A stretch of DNA of 64,000 nucleotides from positions 1 through 64,000 of the IMG/VR virus record IMGVR_UViG_3300033550_000002; one strand, 5' to 3'. The notes beneath the pieces are model-generated. The model was not told the DNA's origin. It saw only the letters and a program-made list of their open reading frames with translations, and searched no databases. Positions 54,019 to 59,970 of this stretch are shown one piece after another (positions within the stretch are counted from its first letter, which is position 1; the number at the start of each line of letters is the position of its first letter). This stretch comes from a virus. The translations under genes and the position numbers were made by a program.

Positions 54019-54396
54019 TCAGTCGGGCTTGTGCGCTTCGAGAACCGCGATGACGCCTTCCAGGGCCTCGTCGGGGTACCCGCGCATCGACCCCAGACCG
54101 TCGGAGCGAGTCGGCATCAGGCCCAGGTCGAAGATCCGGCCGAGCAGGGCCTCGCGCTTCCTGACGGCCGCGACCTCGGTCTTCGTGCGGAAGTACCGCG
54201 TGTAGCCGTAGTTCTTCTCCGTGTCCACGCGATCGGTCATCGAGAAGGCCGACTCTCGGCCACGCACCTCGATGTAGATGCGGCGGGTACCGATCCGGGT
54301 CACCTCGCAGTTGTCGTACTCACGGCCGTCGTAGACGACGACCTTGCTGCCGGGCCGCAGGACTTCCCCGCCGACCTTGAACTCTCGCTCCTTCAT
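54019..54396 (-). CDS. hypothetical protein
   Basis: downstream of a TAGAAT -10 element. Confidence 0.5.
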   Translation of the reverse strand: MKEREFKVGGEVLRPGSKVVVYDGREYDNCEVTRIGTRRIYIEVRGRESAFSMTDRVDTEKNYGYTRYFRTKTEVAAVRKREALLGRIFDLGLMPTRSDGLGSMRGYPDEALEGVIAVLEAHKPD

Positions 54397-54508
54397 GCAC
54401 TTCTCCGTTTCCTCAACTAACCCCATTCTAGCGAAAGTTGAGAACGCGGGCAAGGAGGGCACGAGAAGGGCCCCCCACCTCCGGAGAGGTGAGGGACCCA
54501 GGCGGGGC

Positions 54509-56083
54509 TCAGGTGAGCCACGGCCACTTCTCGTCGTACCCGGCCTCCAGCGCGAGCACCTGGGCGAAGACCTGGTCGGTCAGTCCGCCGAACTCGTACC
54601 AGCCCTTCAGGCGGGTGTCGATCACGGTCGAGGCGTACCCGACCGGACTGACGCCGTAGAGCTTCACGCCGTCCGGCACCGGCAGGCTCCCGACGCGGCA
54701 CTGCATGTCCGAGATCACGAACACGCGGTCGTGGCCGTCGAGACGGTTGCGGATCGCGCCCGAGATGTTCGTGCCGTGGCCGACCTCACCGGTCCGCTGG
54801 ACGAAGTCGCGGGCCGCCGACAGGACGCCCTGGCCCGGCTTCACGTTGTGCCGGAACTCGCTGTCCGCGAAGCCGAACAGGTCCACCCGGCCCTGGTTGC
54901 GCTGGGCCAGCGTGACGCCGAAGATCGAGGCGACCTCCGACATCATGACCGTCGACTTCTGCGACATCTTCGTGTAGGTCATCGACGCCGAGGTGTCGAT
55001 GAGCACGAGCGTGCGGCCCGGCAGCTCCGGGACGGACTTCAGCGAGCTGTTGATCGCGTCGTCCAGGGCCTGCTTCCAGCGGTCGCTCGGGGCCTCGCGG
55101 TACGCCGTGTAGAACCGGAACGGGAACTGACGGCTCTTCGCCACCTCGGCCGGGTCGGCCAGCCGGTCGGCCAGCGCGCGCGCCCGCTTCGGGTCGATAC
55201 CTGCCTCGTCCATGTTCCGCAGGTTCCGCAGCGCGGCCATGTACGGCAGGTGCGGGGCCATGGCGTCCCAGACCTTCTTCGCGCCGACGCGCGCCTTCAG
55301 GTCCGAGACCGCGTTCTCCCACGTGATGCCCGCATCCGTGAAGGCGGAGCCGTCGGCGAGGGACGCGAGCTTGCGCTGGTCGTCCAGGCCGTACCAGCGC
55401 TTGCGGGCCGCGATCATCGGGACCGTCGAGATGTCGCCGTCGCCGTGGTGCCGCTCGTCGAGCAGGTACTTGAACAGGGCACCCTGCCAGTCGCCTTCAC
55501 CGCGCTCGGTGCGCGGCTTCGGGTGGACCAGCTCCAGCACGTCCGCGAAGCGCAGGCCGCGCGCGTCGGAGTCCCACTTCAGCACGTTCCGCTCGGTGAA
55601 GAGGCGGCGGATCGCCATCCCCAGACCGGCGCGGACCGCGTTCGGGAGCGCCCGGCCGAAGGTGAGCTGCCAGTACGCCAGGAACTCGGTGATCTCCTCA
55701 CCCCGCTGGATCACGGAGTCGATCAGCTCGGCGTTGCCGTCGTGCTGGCCCGCCTTGAGCCGGGCGCTGACCGCGTGCGCCGCCCCGGTCAGGGAAGCGG
55801 TGCGGATGTTCGCGTCCGAGCGCAGCCAGCGCAGCAGGCCGCGCAGCCACTCCCAGTCGCCGACCGCGTGCAGCTCCACGAGGTTGTTGTAGCGGGCGTC
55901 GCGGCTGGTGCCCTTCTCATGGAAGGTGTCCTGGCCGACGAGGTTCACGGCCGCGAGGCTGTACAGCTCGCCGCGCAGGCCGTGCCCGAAGGCCGGGGCT
56001 CCCTGGTGGTTCACCGTCGCGCCCTTGACGACGTCCTTCGGGCGTCCGGTCGCCCGGACACCTGCGTTGTTGAAGCGTGCCAT
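54509..56083 (-). CDS. rsr: TROVE-domain RNA-binding protein (Ro60/Rsr ortholog)
   Basis: 'MARFN', 'EL..LAAVNLVGQDTFHE', 'PYMAALRNLRN', 'KSRQFPFRFY.AY', vWA MIDAS 'LIDTSASM', 'GHGT', 'ISDMQ'. Confidence 0.93.
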   Translation of the reverse strand: MARFNNAGVRATGRPKDVVKGATVNHQGAPAFGHGLRGELYSLAAVNLVGQDTFHEKGTSRDARYNNLVELHAVGDWEWLRGLLRWLRSDANIRTASLTGAAHAVSARLKAGQHDGNAELIDSVIQRGEEITEFLAYWQLTFGRALPNAVRAGLGMAIRRLFTERNVLKWDSDARGLRFADVLELVHPKPRTERGEGDWQGALFKYLLDERHHGDGDISTVPMIAARKRWYGLDDQRKLASLADGSAFTDAGITWENAVSDLKARVGAKKVWDAMAPHLPYMAALRNLRNMDEAGIDPKRARALADRLADPAEVAKSRQFPFRFYTAYREAPSDRWKQALDDAINSSLKSVPELPGRTLVLIDTSASMTYTKMSQKSTVMMSEVASIFGVTLAQRNQGRVDLFGFADSEFRHNVKPGQGVLSAARDFVQRTGEVGHGTNISGAIRNRLDGHDRVFVISDMQCRVGSLPVPDGVKLYGVSPVGYASTVIDTRLKGWYEFGGLTDQVFAQVLALEAGYDEKWPWLT

Positions 56084-56098
56084 GGAACTTCTCCTCTC

Positions 56099-56860
56099 TC
56101 AGCCGATGTTCATGGTTCGCCGGTAGTCGGCGAAGCGGGCCTTGCGGATGACCGATCGGTCGGCGCTCCGGAAGACGATGCCTTCCGGCGAGCCGTGCCC
56201 CTTCTCGTCGAGTGCGACGCGGGTCTGGGGCAGGGTGTTGCTCAGGAACCGGTGGGTCCCGAAGTGGGTCTCGGGCATCTCGTAGCCCATCACGGTGCAC
56301 AGGTGCGGCACGCGCGGGATGCCGGTCAGGCGGCTGACGTCGTCGAGCTGTTCGACCGACAGGAAGGTCTGGCCGCCGTTCTCACGCCACCGGGAGATCG
56401 TTTCCCGGTCCCACTCGAAGGGCTGGGTGCCCTCCGTCAGGACGTCGAACATGCGGTGGCCGCGCGATCCGCTGCCCGTGTACTGCTTCGCCTGGCCGCC
56501 GATCTTCGAGCCGTAGACCTCCAGGTACACCGCGACCACGCCGAGTTCCGGGGACAGCTCCGAGATCTGGCACAGGCTCTCCGCGACGGGGCGCAGCTCG
56601 GTGACGATGTCGTGGCTGACGCCGGTCGACGGGACCACCCGGTCACCCTTCGCGTGCAGCAGCTCCTCGCGGGAGCCGATGAAGTAGTCACCGCCGGGGA
56701 GCAGGACGATGCGGCCGTTCGTGCCGTCGACCTTCTCGTAGCCGAACACCTCTCCGGTGAACGGTGTCACCTTGTCGGTGAGCCGACCCTTCTCGCCGAG
56801 GACGTGGTAGGTCTCGATCGATGGGTACTTCGTGACGGAGTTCAGGATTTCCAGGTTCAC
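56099..56860 (-). CDS. ATP-dependent RNA ligase (Rnl2-like nucleotidyltransferase)
   Basis: 'KYPSI', motif I 'EKVDGTN', 'GSR', 'EVYG', 'FDV', 'EGIVFR', 'K.R'. Confidence 0.88.
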   Translation of the reverse strand: MNLEILNSVTKYPSIETYHVLGEKGRLTDKVTPFTGEVFGYEKVDGTNGRIVLLPGGDYFIGSREELLHAKGDRVVPSTGVSHDIVTELRPVAESLCQISELSPELGVVAVYLEVYGSKIGGQAKQYTGSGSRGHRMFDVLTEGTQPFEWDRETISRWRENGGQTFLSVEQLDDVSRLTGIPRVPHLCTVMGYEMPETHFGTHRFLSNTLPQTRVALDEKGHGSPEGIVFRSADRSVIRKARFADYRRTMNIG

Positions 56861-56879
56861 GGTTCTCTCCTTTTCCGGG

Positions 56880-56910
56880 AAAACAAAAACCCCCTCCGAC
56901 TGGAGGGGGC
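56880..56910 (-). terminator. intrinsic terminator after the Y RNA array
   Basis: GCCCCCTCC-AGTC-GGAGGGGGT followed by TTTTGTTTT on - strand. Confidence 0.8.
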
Positions 56911-56916
56911 GCGATA

Positions 56917-57078
56917 TGCACAGACGTACCGGCCGGTTCACCAGAGCAACTGCGGTTTTTGGAGACCATTGCTCTACCAATTGAGCTACCCAGCTTTTCA
57001 AGGCCGGGACTGGAATTGAACCAGCAACCCACGGTTTGAAGTAACCGCCGTCTTCGCACCGGCCGGTGCGTCCGTGCA
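56917..57078 (-). ncRNA. YrlA-type Y RNA, unit 1 (permuted tRNA-Trp-like domain)
   Basis: paired ends; GGUGCGA...UACUUC / GGUGAACC scaffold; T arm GCUGG-UUCAAUU-CCAGU precedes a loop-closed acceptor stem and D arm GCUC-AAUUGGUA-GAGC; adjacent to the ligase-TROVE operon. Confidence 0.85.
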
Positions 57079-57080
57079 CA

Positions 57081-57252
57081 TCACAGGAATCCTGGAGCCG
57101 CCTGGTTCACCGAGATCGCGACGGGGAACGTTGCGCGTGCTGCCAATTACACTACCGGGCTTTCGCCTTCGCCTGGACTTGAACCGGACTACGCCCTCCT
57201 GAAGGGGAAGTATCCGTCACTGTCGCACCAGACGACACCAGGATTCCTGTGA
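57081..57252 (-). ncRNA. YrlA-type Y RNA, unit 2
   Basis: 15-bp terminal stem; same scaffold; T loop UUCAAGU, GGC-GAAA-GCC closed acceptor mimic, D arm GUGU-AAUUGGCA-GCAC. Confidence 0.8.
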
Positions 57253-57255
57253 ATT

Positions 57256-57333
57256 GCGCCCCCCGGTTCACCGGAACGACTGCGGAGAGTTTCATTACCA
57301 GTGAAGTATCCGCTGTCTTCGCACCGGGGGTGC
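57256..57333 (-). ncRNA. minimal Y RNA, unit 3 (scaffold + anticodon-like stem-loop only)
   Basis: GCACCCCCGGUGCGAAGACAGCGGAUACUUCACUGGUAAUGAA...CCGCAGUC...GGUGAACCGGGGGGCGC. Confidence 0.72.
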
Positions 57334-57340
57334 AGGAAAA

Positions 57341-57370
57341 ACATTACGGGATGCTGCGACGAGGTCGCAA
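57341..57370 (-). promoter_or_regulatory. sigma70/HrdB-type promoter for the Y RNA array
   Basis: TTGCGA-N18-TAATGT; predicted start coincides with the 5' G of unit 3. Confidence 0.7.
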
Positions 57371-57375
57371 CTCCT

Positions 57376-57849
57376 TTACGCGTAGACCGCGCAGAGCAGC
57401 CAGGAGGCCGTCGTCTGCTGCGGGGTCATCTCCAGCCGCTCCAGCGCCCGGCTCAGCCTGCCCTCCGCGAGGAGGTACTGCGCCGGGGTGAACGTGAGCG
57501 GGTCGATGGCCTGGGGAACGGTGCCGGAAGCCTTGAAGGTCATGCCGGAGGCGACCAGGGAGATGTGCGTGTACTCCAGGTGCCCGGTCCAGCAGATGTC
57601 GATGCCGAGGTGCTTCGCCATGAGCGCGGACAGCGAGTACTCGGCGGAGTCGATCTCCTCCTGGCTCACGTTGCCCGCGCGCAGGAGCCGCCTGCGCATC
57701 TCGTTCTCGTAGTCCGACTCGATGTCGGCCATCCAGTGGCCGTCGAGAAGGCTGCCGTACTCGTCGACCTCGTCGACCTTCCAGGAGCCCTCGTCGGGAC
57801 AGCCCAGGTAGAACCCGTACGCGAGGCGCGCACTCGACCCCATCGGCAT
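57376..57849 (-). CDS. hypothetical protein
   Basis: 157 aa; 'MG.S.ARLAYGF.LG', 'WLLCA.Y'. Confidence 0.6.
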   Translation of the reverse strand: MPMGSSARLAYGFYLGCPDEGSWKVDEVDEYGSLLDGHWMADIESDYENEMRRRLLRAGNVSQEEIDSAEYSLSALMAKHLGIDICWTGHLEYTHISLVASGMTFKASGTVPQAIDPLTFTPAQYLLAEGRLSRALERLEMTPQQTTASWLLCAVYA

Positions 57850-57881
57850 ACCATTTCCCCTCTCCGGAACAAGACCGCGCG

Positions 57882-58004
57882 TCAGTACGCGCCGGACTCC
57901 TCGTACATCATCGTGATCTTCTGCTCCCGGTAGGCTTCCAGCTCCTCCGGGGACAGGAAGGTCATGCCGTCCTCGATCGCGATAAAATCGGCCGTGTCGG
58001 CCAT
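57882..58004 (-). CDS. 40-aa acidic small protein (not in ORF track)
   Basis: MADTADFIAIEDGMTFLSPEELEAYREQKITMMYEESGAY; AAGGGAG RBS; strong GC3. Confidence 0.55.
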   Translation of the reverse strand: MADTADFIAIEDGMTFLSPEELEAYREQKITMMYEESGAY

Positions 58005-58027
58005 CTTTTCTTCTCCCTTCCCTTGCG

Positions 58028-58145
58028 TGTACACGATGGGATTCGAACCCACGGACCGCACGGAATCACCAGTTCCGCCCGGTCGCCTGCCCCTGTCGCT
58101 GGGACGACTTCAGCAGGCACCCTTTGGCCACTCGGGCACGTGTAC
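58028..58145 (-). tRNA. atypical class II (Leu-like) tRNA with 24-nt anticodon loop and long variable arm
   Basis: 7-bp acceptor GUACACG/CGUGUAC, discriminator A, D arm CCC-GAGUGGCCAAA-GGG, T arm GUGGG-UUCGAAU-CCCAU. Confidence 0.7.
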
Positions 58146-58254
58146 TGCCGGACCTCGAACGGTTACCGGCCCAGATTCCGCCTACGGGGGTCAATGTGGC
58201 CATACGGCTCATCTACGCGGAATCAAGGAGGCTCTTCTGCCACCCCCACCTCAG

Positions 58255-58325
58255 AACCTGTGACGGGATTTGAACCCGCGCCGCCGACACCCTCACGTCG
58301 GAGTGCTGCGCTACACCACACAGGC
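58255..58325 (-). tRNA. tRNA-like gene with 8-nt anticodon loop and no D-loop GG
   Basis: GCCUGUG/CACAGGU acceptor; CCGAC-GUGAGGGU-GUCGG; GCGGG-UUCAAAU-CCCGU. Confidence 0.65.
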
Positions 58326-58437
58326 CGGAATCCAGGAGCGGAAGCGTGGAGCCGCCGCTGTGCCTTCCTGGATTCCTTGTTGGTTCAAAAAGGACCGAGG
58401 GCTGTGCTGTGCCAACAGGGTGCAACCCCCGGTCCAG

Positions 58438-58511
58438 TCGACGGAGAAGGACTTGAACCTTCGACCTCTGGTTTATCAGACCAGTGCTCTACCGAACTGA
58501 GCTATCCGTCG
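58438..58511 (-). tRNA. tRNA-Ile(GAU), CCA not encoded
   Basis: canonical cloverleaf; CUGGU-CUGAUAA-ACCAG; discriminator A. Confidence 0.92.
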
Positions 58512-58622
58512 TTCCTCGCCAGGGGTGGTCGGATCACCCCCGGCGAAGGGTGCGCCGAGGAGGGCCAAATCAACCTCGGTGCGGGTGTTCTCAGGTGGTC
58601 GGACACCCTCGAACTAGTTATT

Positions 58623-58652
58623 ACGTTACCGGAGTTGAGGGCAGGGTGTCAA
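58623..58652 (-). promoter_or_regulatory. strong sigma70/HrdB-type promoter for the tRNA/ncRNA cluster
   Basis: TTGACA-N18-TAACGT. Confidence 0.75.
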
Positions 58653-58662
58653 CTTCCTGCGA

Positions 58663-59970
58663 TCAGACCGCGAGGCGGAAGTACTCCCCGTCCGGCTTCA
58701 GGATTCCGTCGCGGGTGAAGGACCGCAGGAATCCCGTCGCCTGCTGGGTCCCGCAGCCCGTCCAGGAAGCCAGGATCTCCGGCGTCCAGAAGCCGTCCGG
58801 CTGGCTCCTGAGCGCCCGCAGGGCGACGTCCCGGGGAAACTGCCCGACACCGTTCTTCGGGTACGCCAGGAGGCGCACCATGTCGTCGGTGACCGTCCAG
58901 GTGCGGATCAGGTTCCGGCCGTGCACGTTCAGGTACCCGTGCCCCCGGAAGCGCGTTCCGCGCGGGAGCGTGTGCGGCTCCACGCCGGAGCCGTCGCCGA
59001 GCACCGTCGTCGTGTTCTGCGAGGTGTTCACCCGCAGGCAGAAGGAGTAGTCGAAGTTCGAGCGGATGCCCGAGGTGATACCCCGGTCGTCTCCCGTGCG
59101 CAGCGGGTTCTGCGTCATCCACATCAGGATGACCTCGCGGGAACGCCCCTGGCTGGACAGCTCGGTGAGCTTCTGCATCACCGACTTGTCCGGGCCCTCC
59201 TGGAAGGTGTACTCCTCACCGTCCTGGTTCTTCGGGGCCTTGCCGCGCCGCTTGTCCTCCTCGATCACCGCGCAGAGGACCGAGTACCCCTCGTCGATGA
59301 CGATGAGCTTGCGGGGCCCGAGCTGGAAGTCCCACTTGCTCAGGCCCTTCTTGGCCATCAGGGCGGCCCGCTCTTCCATCTTGGCGTGGGCGGACTCGAT
59401 GGCCTCGATGATCTCCTCGTGGGCGACCGCGCAGCGGCAGATGCCGCGCCAGACCGTGGCCTCCTCGCCCTTCCCGTCGATGAACCAGTCCAGCTCCTCG
59501 TCGGGGTGCACGACGGCGCGGGCCATCAGGGACCGCGTGGACCAGCTCTTGCCGGAGCCCGAGGCCCCGCCGACCAGGATGCGCTCGTTGCGCGGTACGT
59601 CGACCTCCTCGCCCGTGACGGTGTCGCGCCCCAGGGTCGTGATGCCGGGGTGCCAGAACATGTCCAGCTCGTCGGTCACGTACCGGGTCCGGATCGCGTA
59701 GAGCACTCGCGAGGACCGGCCGGAGGGCGACAGGTCGCTCAGGTCGGCGTCGAGGACGTCGAGCATGACGCGCAGCTTCTGGTGCCCGCGCTCCAGCTCG
59801 GTCAGGGTGTCGCGGTCGTTGAGTCCGAGGGTCGCCACGACCCCGGACTCGGTCAGGGCGGCGTTGACCAGGCTCACGCCACGGAAGCCGCGCTTGCGGG
59901 ACTCGACTTCCCACCAGGCGGGCTGGAGGAGGTCGAGGAGGCGCAGTTCCTCATCCGTCGGCTTCAGCAC
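58663..59970 (-). CDS. FtsK/SpoIIIE-family conjugative translocase (TraB/TraSA-like)
   Basis: Walker A 'GGASGSGKS', 'IDGK', Walker B 'IVIDEG', 'QGRS', 'TQNP', 'IRSNF', C-terminal wHTH. Confidence 0.85.
   Translation of the reverse strand: MLKPTDEELRLLDLLQPAWWEVESRKRGFRGVSLVNAALTESGVVATLGLNDRDTLTELERGHQKLRVMLDVLDADLSDLSPSGRSSRVLYAIRTRYVTDELDMFWHPGITTLGRDTVTGEEVDVPRNERILVGGASGSGKSWSTRSLMARAVVHPDEELDWFIDGKGEEATVWRGICRCAVAHEEIIEAIESAHAKMEERAALMAKKGLSKWDFQLGPRKLIVIDEGYSVLCAVIEEDKRRGKAPKNQDGEEYTFQEGPDKSVMQKLTELSSQGRSREVILMWMTQNPLRTGDDRGITSGIRSNFDYSFCLRVNTSQNTTTVLGDGSGVEPHTLPRGTRFRGHGYLNVHGRNLIRTWTVTDDMVRLLAYPKNGVGQFPRDVALRALRSQPDGFWTPEILASWTGCGTQQATGFLRSFTRDGILKPDGEYFRLAV

Follow-up and report, generated by a model that had tools for sequence, protein, structure and literature searches.

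A tRNA(Tyr)-derived RNA with two extended arms, conserved in a lineage of Streptomyces phages and probably not used in decoding

Introduction

Ro60 proteins with tRNA-like Y RNA partners are established in bacteria and phages (PMC4201824, PMC12135203). Ro60/Rsr binds Y RNAs of the YrlA type (RF02553), which mimic tRNAs (Chen et al. 2014, PMC4201824) and of which there is an example in a phage (PMC12135203). RNA repair in jumbo phages has likewise been linked, in comparative work, to TROVE proteins and their tRNA-like partners (PMC7824862).

The tRNA genes of phages are commonly interpreted as a codon supply or as spare parts for anti-defence. In T4, Pnkp and Rnl1 repair the damage done by PrrC, and the tRNAs of T5 act against PARIS and retron effectors. 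Phage tRNAs are described as countering host defences that cleave tRNAs (PMC11455837, PMC7824862). As for archaeal and eukaryotic pre-tRNAs, their introns are characterised by a bulge-helix-bulge structure and are handled by EndA/Sen plus RtcB/Trl1 (PMC4090602).

Here we describe an RNA gene found in a 64,000-nt stretch of viral DNA (hereafter the window), which corresponds to positions 1 to 64,000 of the IMG/VR record IMGVR_UViG_3300033550_000002, a 79.7-kb fragment from an uncultured virus. No earlier account of this RNA came up when we searched the literature. We propose that it is probably a stable look-alike of tRNA(Tyr) that does not decode.

Results

A cloverleaf-shaped RNA gene of 118 nt

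The minus strand of the window carries at 58145..58028 a cloverleaf-shaped RNA gene of 118 nt, in which a tRNA core is combined with two extended arms (RNA position p is window coordinate 58146 - p). Its minimum free energy fold reaches -60.4 kcal/mol (z = -3.7), and none of 200 shuffled sequences was as stable. ARAGORN made no call on 58145..58028, nor was the RNA called by Rfam with default filters; in a lenient search with the tRNA family RF00005 it scored 35.3 bits, for a cut-off of 29.

The 5' strand of the acceptor stem, GUACACG (58139..58145, minus strand), pairs with 58029-58035 into seven base pairs that are paired in 100% of cases, three of them with compensatory changes. It is completed by a discriminator A at 58028, and the CCA end is not encoded in the gene. 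The D arm (58120..58136) has a 3-bp CCC/GGG stem and a loop with G18 and G19, and the T arm (58036..58052) consists of the stem strands GUGGG and CCCAU around the loop UUCGAAU, with compensatory changes in three of its five pairs. Core tertiary nucleotides of tRNAs are retained, namely U8, A14, the G15/C48 couple, G18G19 and the T loop. The intact acceptor, D and T arms and the discriminator A recorded in the first-pass annotation are therefore borne out by the fold, by covariation and by RNAalifold. With respect to RF00005, the RNA has the cloverleaf and the conserved tertiary nucleotides of the family; what it lacks is the 7-nt anticodon loop with a conserved anticodon, the place of which is taken by a covarying rod of 24 nt.

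A family found in one phage lineage

The relatives of the virus are Streptomyces phages of approximately 185-200 kb, Satis, Quantum, Kradal, EhyElimayoE, JustBecause, Kela and Frankenweenie. All seven have a homologue of the RNA at the same place, after an FtsK-like gene, a tRNA-Ile gene and a second, odd tRNA gene. Of the cultured carriers, Satis, JustBecause and Frankenweenie grow on Streptomyces lividans or S. scabiei. By scanning IMG/VR and metagenomes with sequence patterns, and with a covariance model built from the alignment, we arrived at a set of 11 distinct versions from related Streptomyces phages and soil contigs. A loose pattern for the extended anticodon arm was useless in IMG/VR, where it gave more than 119 chance matches, and tighter patterns worked. 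All family members belong to one phage lineage, and none was found in the Ro60-bearing actinophages GiJojo, Atuin and VanLee.

Across relatives, the RNA is approximately 71-80% identical. In a model-guided alignment of the 11 distinct sequences, 98.7% of the cells are paired and 20 of the 36 pairs show double-sided, compensatory changes, a number that none of 500 shuffles reached. RNAalifold applied to a plain MAFFT alignment of nine orthologues returned the same structure; of the 38 pairs that it predicted, 20 show compensatory changes. Pairing is also kept in all three natural strain variants that fall in the RNA (U-A to U.G, G.U to G-C and C-G to U.G).

Decay of a former tRNA gene might have been suspected, given that standard tRNA finders miss the RNA and that the GenBank annotations are inconsistent. 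Nevertheless, the compensatory changes across the helices, the invariant loops and a length that stays constant over some 20-25% of sequence divergence make a decaying pseudogene extremely improbable; conserved pairing with compensatory changes in effect excludes decay. It had been argued from the intact stems alone that the gene was not simply decaying, and covariation confirms this.

In the GenBank records of the relatives, the RNA is annotated as nothing at all, as a hypothetical protein CDS or as a truncated 'tRNA-Ser'. In Kela (gp140, L005:2515-2760) and Quantum (gp139), a 'hypothetical protein' CDS is drawn over the tRNA-like RNA; these are probably over-extended calls of the small ORF that lies downstream.

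Near-identical DNA, defined as at least half of the sampled 31-mers of 56000-59000 in the window, is present in 18 public sequencing runs; if partial occurrences of this interval are counted too, the number rises to 20 runs, which come from 11 studies. They are soil, plant, groundwater and invertebrate-gut metagenomes, which indicates that the phage lineage is widespread. Two runs labelled 'metatranscriptomic' behave like DNA, one of them with an 89.7-kb contig. The four runs that we examined as contigs are almost certainly DNA; they contain no splice joints, and they speak neither for nor against splicing or expression. In the single oligo-dT RNA run, coverage is confined to 57777-58009, outside the RNA gene, at a depth of 3.4.

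Two long arms in place of a decoding end

The extended anticodon arm, which we call hairpin A, spans 58085..58118. Its outer stem of 6-7 bp is invariant in sequence, with no double changes among the 11 versions, and it leads to an internal loop that is invariant as well, with UGAA on the 5' side and RGRG on the 3' side. Further up, the sequence of a 5-bp inner helix varies freely yet stays paired, four of its five pairs showing compensatory changes. The apical loop contains a CCAG (58099..58102) that does not change in the alignment of the 11 versions. The GCCUG/CAGGC stem noticed earlier around 24 nt with an inner GUCG/CGAC helix is thus present, the outer stem reading GCCUG(C)/(G)CAGGC and the inner helix GUCGU/GCGAC. 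Relative to a 7-nt anticodon loop, the arm has an 'insertion' at RNA positions 38-54 (58092..58108) that measures exactly 17 nt in every member (11/11), and the comparison of orthologues shows it to covary, with no random disruption. If the additional U.G pair proposed by RNAalifold is included, hairpin A comprises 7 bp, three purine-purine oppositions (3x3), 5 bp and a tetraloop. So modelled, the anticodon arm would be a continuous rod of approximately 15 layers and not a loop.

We also compared the internal loop by eye with the consensus motifs of K-turns, hammerheads and hairpin ribozymes and rejected all three, as the GA, CUGANGA or GUC positions that they require are not conserved. Rfam, searched at E <= 10, gave no ribozyme or intron match in the 118-nt RNA.

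Hairpin B, at 58054..58084, is an oversized variable arm built of two 5-bp helices with a 2x2 loop between them and a terminal loop of 7-8 nt, and it is directly followed by a single C at 58053 that corresponds to C48. Eight of its ten pairs have compensatory changes, and the arm is lengthened to approximately 12 layers. The first-pass annotation had described it as a paired arm of about 30 nt (GACCG..CGGAA/UUCCG..CGGUC), which holds, with a length of 32 nt. Among the relatives, its loop of 7 to 9 nt always starts with CUGG (58069..58072 in the window), and the next bases vary (U, A or G).

All 11 versions have the same CCAG in loop A and the same CUGG in loop B, and these two motifs are complementary. 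This is suggestive of a kissing clasp between the tips of the two arms. The flanking pair 43-78 is C-G in five versions, U-A in Satis, A-U in the version L279 and a mismatch in 4 of 11, and this covariation is weak, being matched by 36 of 500 shuffles.

Hairpin B as such could be mistaken for an anticodon arm, with hairpin A as the extra arm and Thr (GGU) as the identity in the window. The second base of its 7-nt loop CUGGUGA is a U and the sixth a purine, and ARAGORN reports a 72-nt tRNA-Ser on the 3' part of the RNA in JustBecause, which is the reading behind the 'tRNA-Ser(GGA)' of GenBank. However, the would-be anticodon is GGU, GGA or GGG and hence shifts between Thr, Ser and Pro among close relatives, which indicates that hairpin B is not decoding. 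In addition, the loop has 8-9 nt in some relatives and a U at 'position 37' in Satis, the hairpin sits at the site of the variable arm with C48 directly after it, and its stem reaches 10-12 bp. As for the tRNA-Ser call in JustBecause, it ignores the covarying 5' acceptor strand and D arm. We consider a decoding tRNA of this kind very improbable.

A body of the tRNA-Tyr type

The segment from U8 to G25, which includes the D arm, is identical to that of Streptomyces tRNA-Tyr(GUA), and when a genome collection was scanned with the D-arm sequence, all 16 loci that we checked were tRNA-Tyr genes. Searched with the family model, two Streptomyces genomes gave tRNA-Tyr as the best match (45.6 bits), ahead of tRNA-Ser (39.6 bits) and, lower, a tRNA-Leu; in the Arthrobacter phage Atuin, the best match is that phage's ordinary tRNA-Tyr. 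A73, C32-U33-G34 and C48 also fit Tyr. From these sequence comparisons, the body of the RNA is of the Tyr type, class II. The Leu-type identity initially assigned to it is not supported, given that the D arm is that of tRNA-Tyr and that the family model ranks Leu below Tyr and Ser. The register CU-GAG-GG on which the proposal of a Leu(GAG) anticodon was based is not conserved either, with GAG in Satis and the window and GAA in JustBecause.

What the RNA thus has in common with the class II tRNA-Tyr(GUA) of Streptomyces is the U8-G25 segment, A73, C32-U33-G34, a canonical T loop and a variable arm that is long and ends in C48. In contrast, it has neither a 7-nt anticodon loop nor the GUA anticodon: C-U-G-A-A is read at this place, without U35, and the 17-nt helix-forming insertion follows. 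The variable arm is also much longer, 32 nt compared with 13, and the acceptor and T stem sequences differ.

Is the insertion a mini-intron?

It had been proposed that the RNA is either a tRNA with a mini-intron or a non-decoding mimic. As we would formulate the first case, the 17-nt hairpin would be removed by two cuts in the internal loop and the halves joined by the PF09414 ligase of the phage or by the RtcB of the host, giving a class II tRNA with the loop CUGAAGG and the anticodon GAA. The conservation of C32 U33 G34 A35 A36 and of G37 G38 (11/11) is in keeping with this idea, as removal of positions 38-54 leaves a conserved, canonical 7-nt loop. CUGAA|GG is the only register that produces the same loop in all members. 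Moreover, an RNA ligase gene is located nearby in the window and in the JustBecause group; the distance of about 1.2 kb given for it initially is correct, with a gene start approximately 1.17 kb downstream (GTG at 56860).

However, the structure is not that of an intron of the archaeal or eukaryotic type. No bulge-helix-bulge is found, the two helices of hairpin A being separated by a symmetric 3x3 or 4x4 purine loop; positions 32-35 have no conserved pairing with the insert, and it is the alternative rod structure that covaries. The tip of the supposed intron, CCAG, is invariant and complementary to a loop of the supposed exon. The invariant outer stem, internal loop and CCAG, together with the covarying inner helix, instead point to a functional structural element, not to a discarded intron. 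A self-splicing element does not fit either. The catalytic core of group I introns comprises at least approximately 200 nt, compared with an insert of 17 nt here, and Rfam offers no ribozyme or group I intron for this RNA.

The splicing endonuclease domain PF01974 is absent from the record that contains the window and from five complete or nearly complete relatives, in a search with positive archaeal controls. These relatives are Satis, Frankenweenie, JustBecause and two IMG/VR genomes of ~100% completeness, and RtcB is absent from the same five, the search having covered phage genomes only. We know of no tRNA splicing endonuclease in bacteria. The PF09414 ligase is present in one of the five, JustBecause, and Kela, which is close to JustBecause, has an annotated RNA ligase at the same position. 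Satis, Frankenweenie and the two IMG/VR genomes lack the ligase and nevertheless keep the RNA with its 17-nt hairpin. The would-be product also raises difficulties: the regular tRNA cluster of the relatives already has a canonical tRNA-Phe(GAA), no synthetase is an obvious candidate for charging a Tyr body that carries a GAA anticodon, and no insert-free version is found among the 11 sequences.

The mini-intron half of the proposal is therefore weakened by the missing bulge-helix-bulge, the absence of PF01974 and RtcB and the presence of the ligase in only one of five relatives, and we regard it as unlikely. The other half, the non-decoding mimic, has gained from the covarying hairpin and variable arm and from the nature of the neighbouring gene. 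Quite improbable, in our estimate, is a true mini-intron processed by cutting and rejoining without a bulge-helix-bulge, in which a host nuclease or another phage nuclease would act with host RtcB or an Rnl2-type phage ligase to produce a Tyr-bodied tRNA with the loop CUGAAGG. If it did exist, it would be the first case in a bacterial virus of a tRNA intron spliced by proteins, and its product might be a recoding tRNA that reads Phe codons.

A second tRNA-like RNA without a stable anticodon region

The RNA is the third of a trio of genes on the same strand. The first is a canonical tRNA-Ile(GAU) at 58437..58511, found by ARAGORN and by Rfam (75.1 bits). The second, tRNA2 (58254..58325, minus strand; ARAGORN, Rfam), ends 110 nt upstream of the 118-nt RNA, and its homologues are located at L003:2343-2412, L002:2314-2399, L004:432-517, L130:5196-5280 and L131:6375-6446. 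Its acceptor, D and T arms are kept and covary across relatives. The anticodon region is a GUG triloop of 3 nt in Satis, has 7 nt in L131 and is the 8-nt loop GUGAGGGU in the window; in JustBecause, Frankenweenie, L129, L130 and L132 it amounts to 18-19 nt and includes a CUGG/CCAG hairpin. A decoding or spliced tRNA could not tolerate such hypervariability, which indicates that the locus maintains tRNA-shaped RNAs devoid of an anticodon. The CUGG:CCAG helix occurs in cis in the 18-19-nt forms of tRNA2; in the 118-nt RNA it would form between the tips of the arms.

The labels given to tRNA2 are diverse: tRNA-His in Satis, a 4-base anticodon 'gagg' by ARAGORN in the window, and tRNA-OTHER, or Pyl by ARAGORN, for the five forms of 18-19 nt. 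When tRNA2 was compared by BLAST with two Streptomyces genomes, its T arm was the only part to give a match. A 94-nt 'tRNA-Tyr' called by ARAGORN in L126 was taken as a false positive, as RF00005 did not confirm it.

Small ORFs, Y RNAs, ligase and Ro60 downstream

Downstream on the same strand follow, in this order, a 40-aa ORF, a 157-aa ORF, a Y-RNA-like array, a terminator and the genes of an RNA ligase, Ro60 and a ProQ-C-like protein. The 40-aa ORF (57882..58004), directly 3' of the RNA, is conserved in relatives as an ORF of about 40-46 aa (L002:2620-2760, L004:721-858). In the window, it starts 23 nt past the discriminator and has a ribosome-binding site. Its annotated start lies 2 nt past the discriminator in JustBecause and Frankenweenie, and the spacing is +26 nt in Satis. 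In JustBecause and Frankenweenie, 3' processing of the tRNA type could create a leaderless mRNA for the small ORF.

This arrangement brings up another function, in which the tRNA shape would be a cutting signal for RNase P and RNase Z between the tRNA cluster and the mRNA of a small protein, perhaps a leaderless one. That a conserved small ORF follows at once speaks for such a processing or stability element. Its spacing is not conserved, though, as the case of Satis illustrates, and the proposal leaves the invariant internal loop, the CCAG and CUGG tips and two covarying long arms without explanation, since a plain tRNA would suffice. We hold it to be unlikely.

The 157-aa protein belongs to no Pfam or PHROG family; it has one near-identical relative in databases and is 30% identical to gp137 of Satis. 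The Y-RNA-like array (putative boundaries 56917..57334, minus strand) comprises tandem units with the ends GGUGCGA... and ...GGUGAACC. Unit 1 corresponds to an Rfam YrlA match at 56943-57051 (40.8 bits, below the gathering score), and YrlA matches recur in the relatives. In unit 3, which is short, the apical loop is the 7-nt CUGGUAA (57301..57295), which has its CUGG in common with hairpin B. Two tRNA annotations of the relatives, a 91-nt 'tRNA-Pro(tgg)' in Frankenweenie (L001:2339-2429) and a 71-nt 'tRNA-Cys' in JustBecause (L002:3342-3412), lie beside Ro60 or the ligase at the position of the Y-RNA array and are probably tRNA-like domains of Y RNAs, not tRNAs.

The array is followed by a strong terminator at 56910-56889 and by the RNA ligase gene (PF09414, phrog_548; 56099..56860, minus strand). 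We place the start of the 253-aa ligase at the GTG at 56860 on the basis of this terminator and of a ribosome-binding site in front of the GTG. The mechanically predicted ORF of 326 aa (56099-57079, minus strand) overstates the protein: the Pfam domain begins at residue 110, and the upstream part overlaps Y-RNA unit 1. The next gene encodes a Ro60-like protein with TROVE and vWA domains (54509..56083, minus strand), and directly downstream of it is the gene of a phage ProQ C-terminal-like protein (54019-54462, minus strand; PF24203, E = 2.9e-13), a further candidate for RNA binding in this block of genes.

The Ro60 protein of the window is 62% identical to those of the Satis group and only 34% to those of JustBecause, Kela and Frankenweenie. 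With Ro60 identities of 34-62% and RNA identities of about 71-80%, the RNA is the more conserved partner. From these sequences, it seems that Ro60 either was exchanged or evolves much faster than the RNAs. In other actinophages, GiJojo and Atuin, Ro60 sits amid tRNA arrays. The 118-nt RNA adjoins Ro60 in the members whose locus can be inspected, which all belong to one lineage, so that the linkage does not count as independent evidence.

Discussion

Our study suggests that the 118-nt RNA descends from a class II tRNA-Tyr, is stable, does not decode and acts as a look-alike of tRNA(Tyr), a reading to which we give a probability of about 0.6. The gene would be transcribed together with tRNA-Ile and tRNA2, and the RNA would be cut out by RNase P and 3' end-processing enzymes and receive its CCA as a tRNA does. 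The CCAG and CUGG tips may then pair and clasp the two long arms. With the elbow and the acceptor end kept, recognition by tRNA-handling proteins would be kept as well, while presenting an anticodon on the ribosome would be impossible.

It is tempting to speculate that the look-alike binds, occupies or recruits a protein that recognises tRNAs, as a decoy, a sponge or an adaptor in a module of Ro60, Y RNAs and tRNAs. Candidate partners might be host defences that target tRNAs, TyrRS, modification enzymes or the Ro60/Y RNA particle that the phage would encode 2 kb away. As for TyrRS, in the complex from T. thermophilus its C-terminal domain recognises the cleft that separates the variable arm from the anticodon arm. 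As for Ro60, no Ro-binding stem is recognisable in the 118-nt RNA; it could work alongside the permuted tRNA mimics, the Y RNAs of the YrlA type, of the same locus. Should the partner be a synthetase, Ro60 or a host defence aimed at tRNAs, this would be a new way for a phage to manipulate the tRNA biology of its host. In this phage lineage, clear purifying selection maintains a tRNA-Tyr body in which the decoding end is rebuilt as two long arms.

Among the known systems, the intron-containing pre-tRNAs of archaea and eukaryotes (PMC4090602) are similar in having a helix-forming extra sequence in the anticodon loop near positions 37/38, and a ligase is nearby in some members of our family. The phage RNA differs from them in that it has no bulge-helix-bulge and no phage endonuclease, its insert has an invariant tip and the ligase is not conserved along with it. 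With the phage tRNAs involved in counter-defence, the RNA shares its tRNA type, its origin in a phage genome and the vicinity of RNA-repair genes. By analogy, a counter-defence role is conceivable; those tRNAs decode, whereas the 118-nt RNA cannot, and it would have to be a decoy or a binder.

The YrlA RNAs offer the closest parallel. They too are derived from tRNAs, do not decode, have an intact D/T elbow and are encoded beside a phage Ro60 gene, and here a YrlA-like RNA is found 1 kb away. In YrlA, which is circularly permuted, the two ends make up the Ro-binding stem, in which there is a CGAA bulge, and a loop closes the acceptor; the phage RNA is unpermuted and has a free acceptor end with a discriminator. 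RF02553 gave no match on the 118-nt RNA, the ends of which form a 7-bp acceptor stem and not a permuted domain. The RNA would thus work like the YrlA class of tRNA mimics without being a member of it. If so, the known repertoire of tRNA mimicry would comprise, besides the permuted YrlA RNAs, an unpermuted RNA for which charging is still conceivable.
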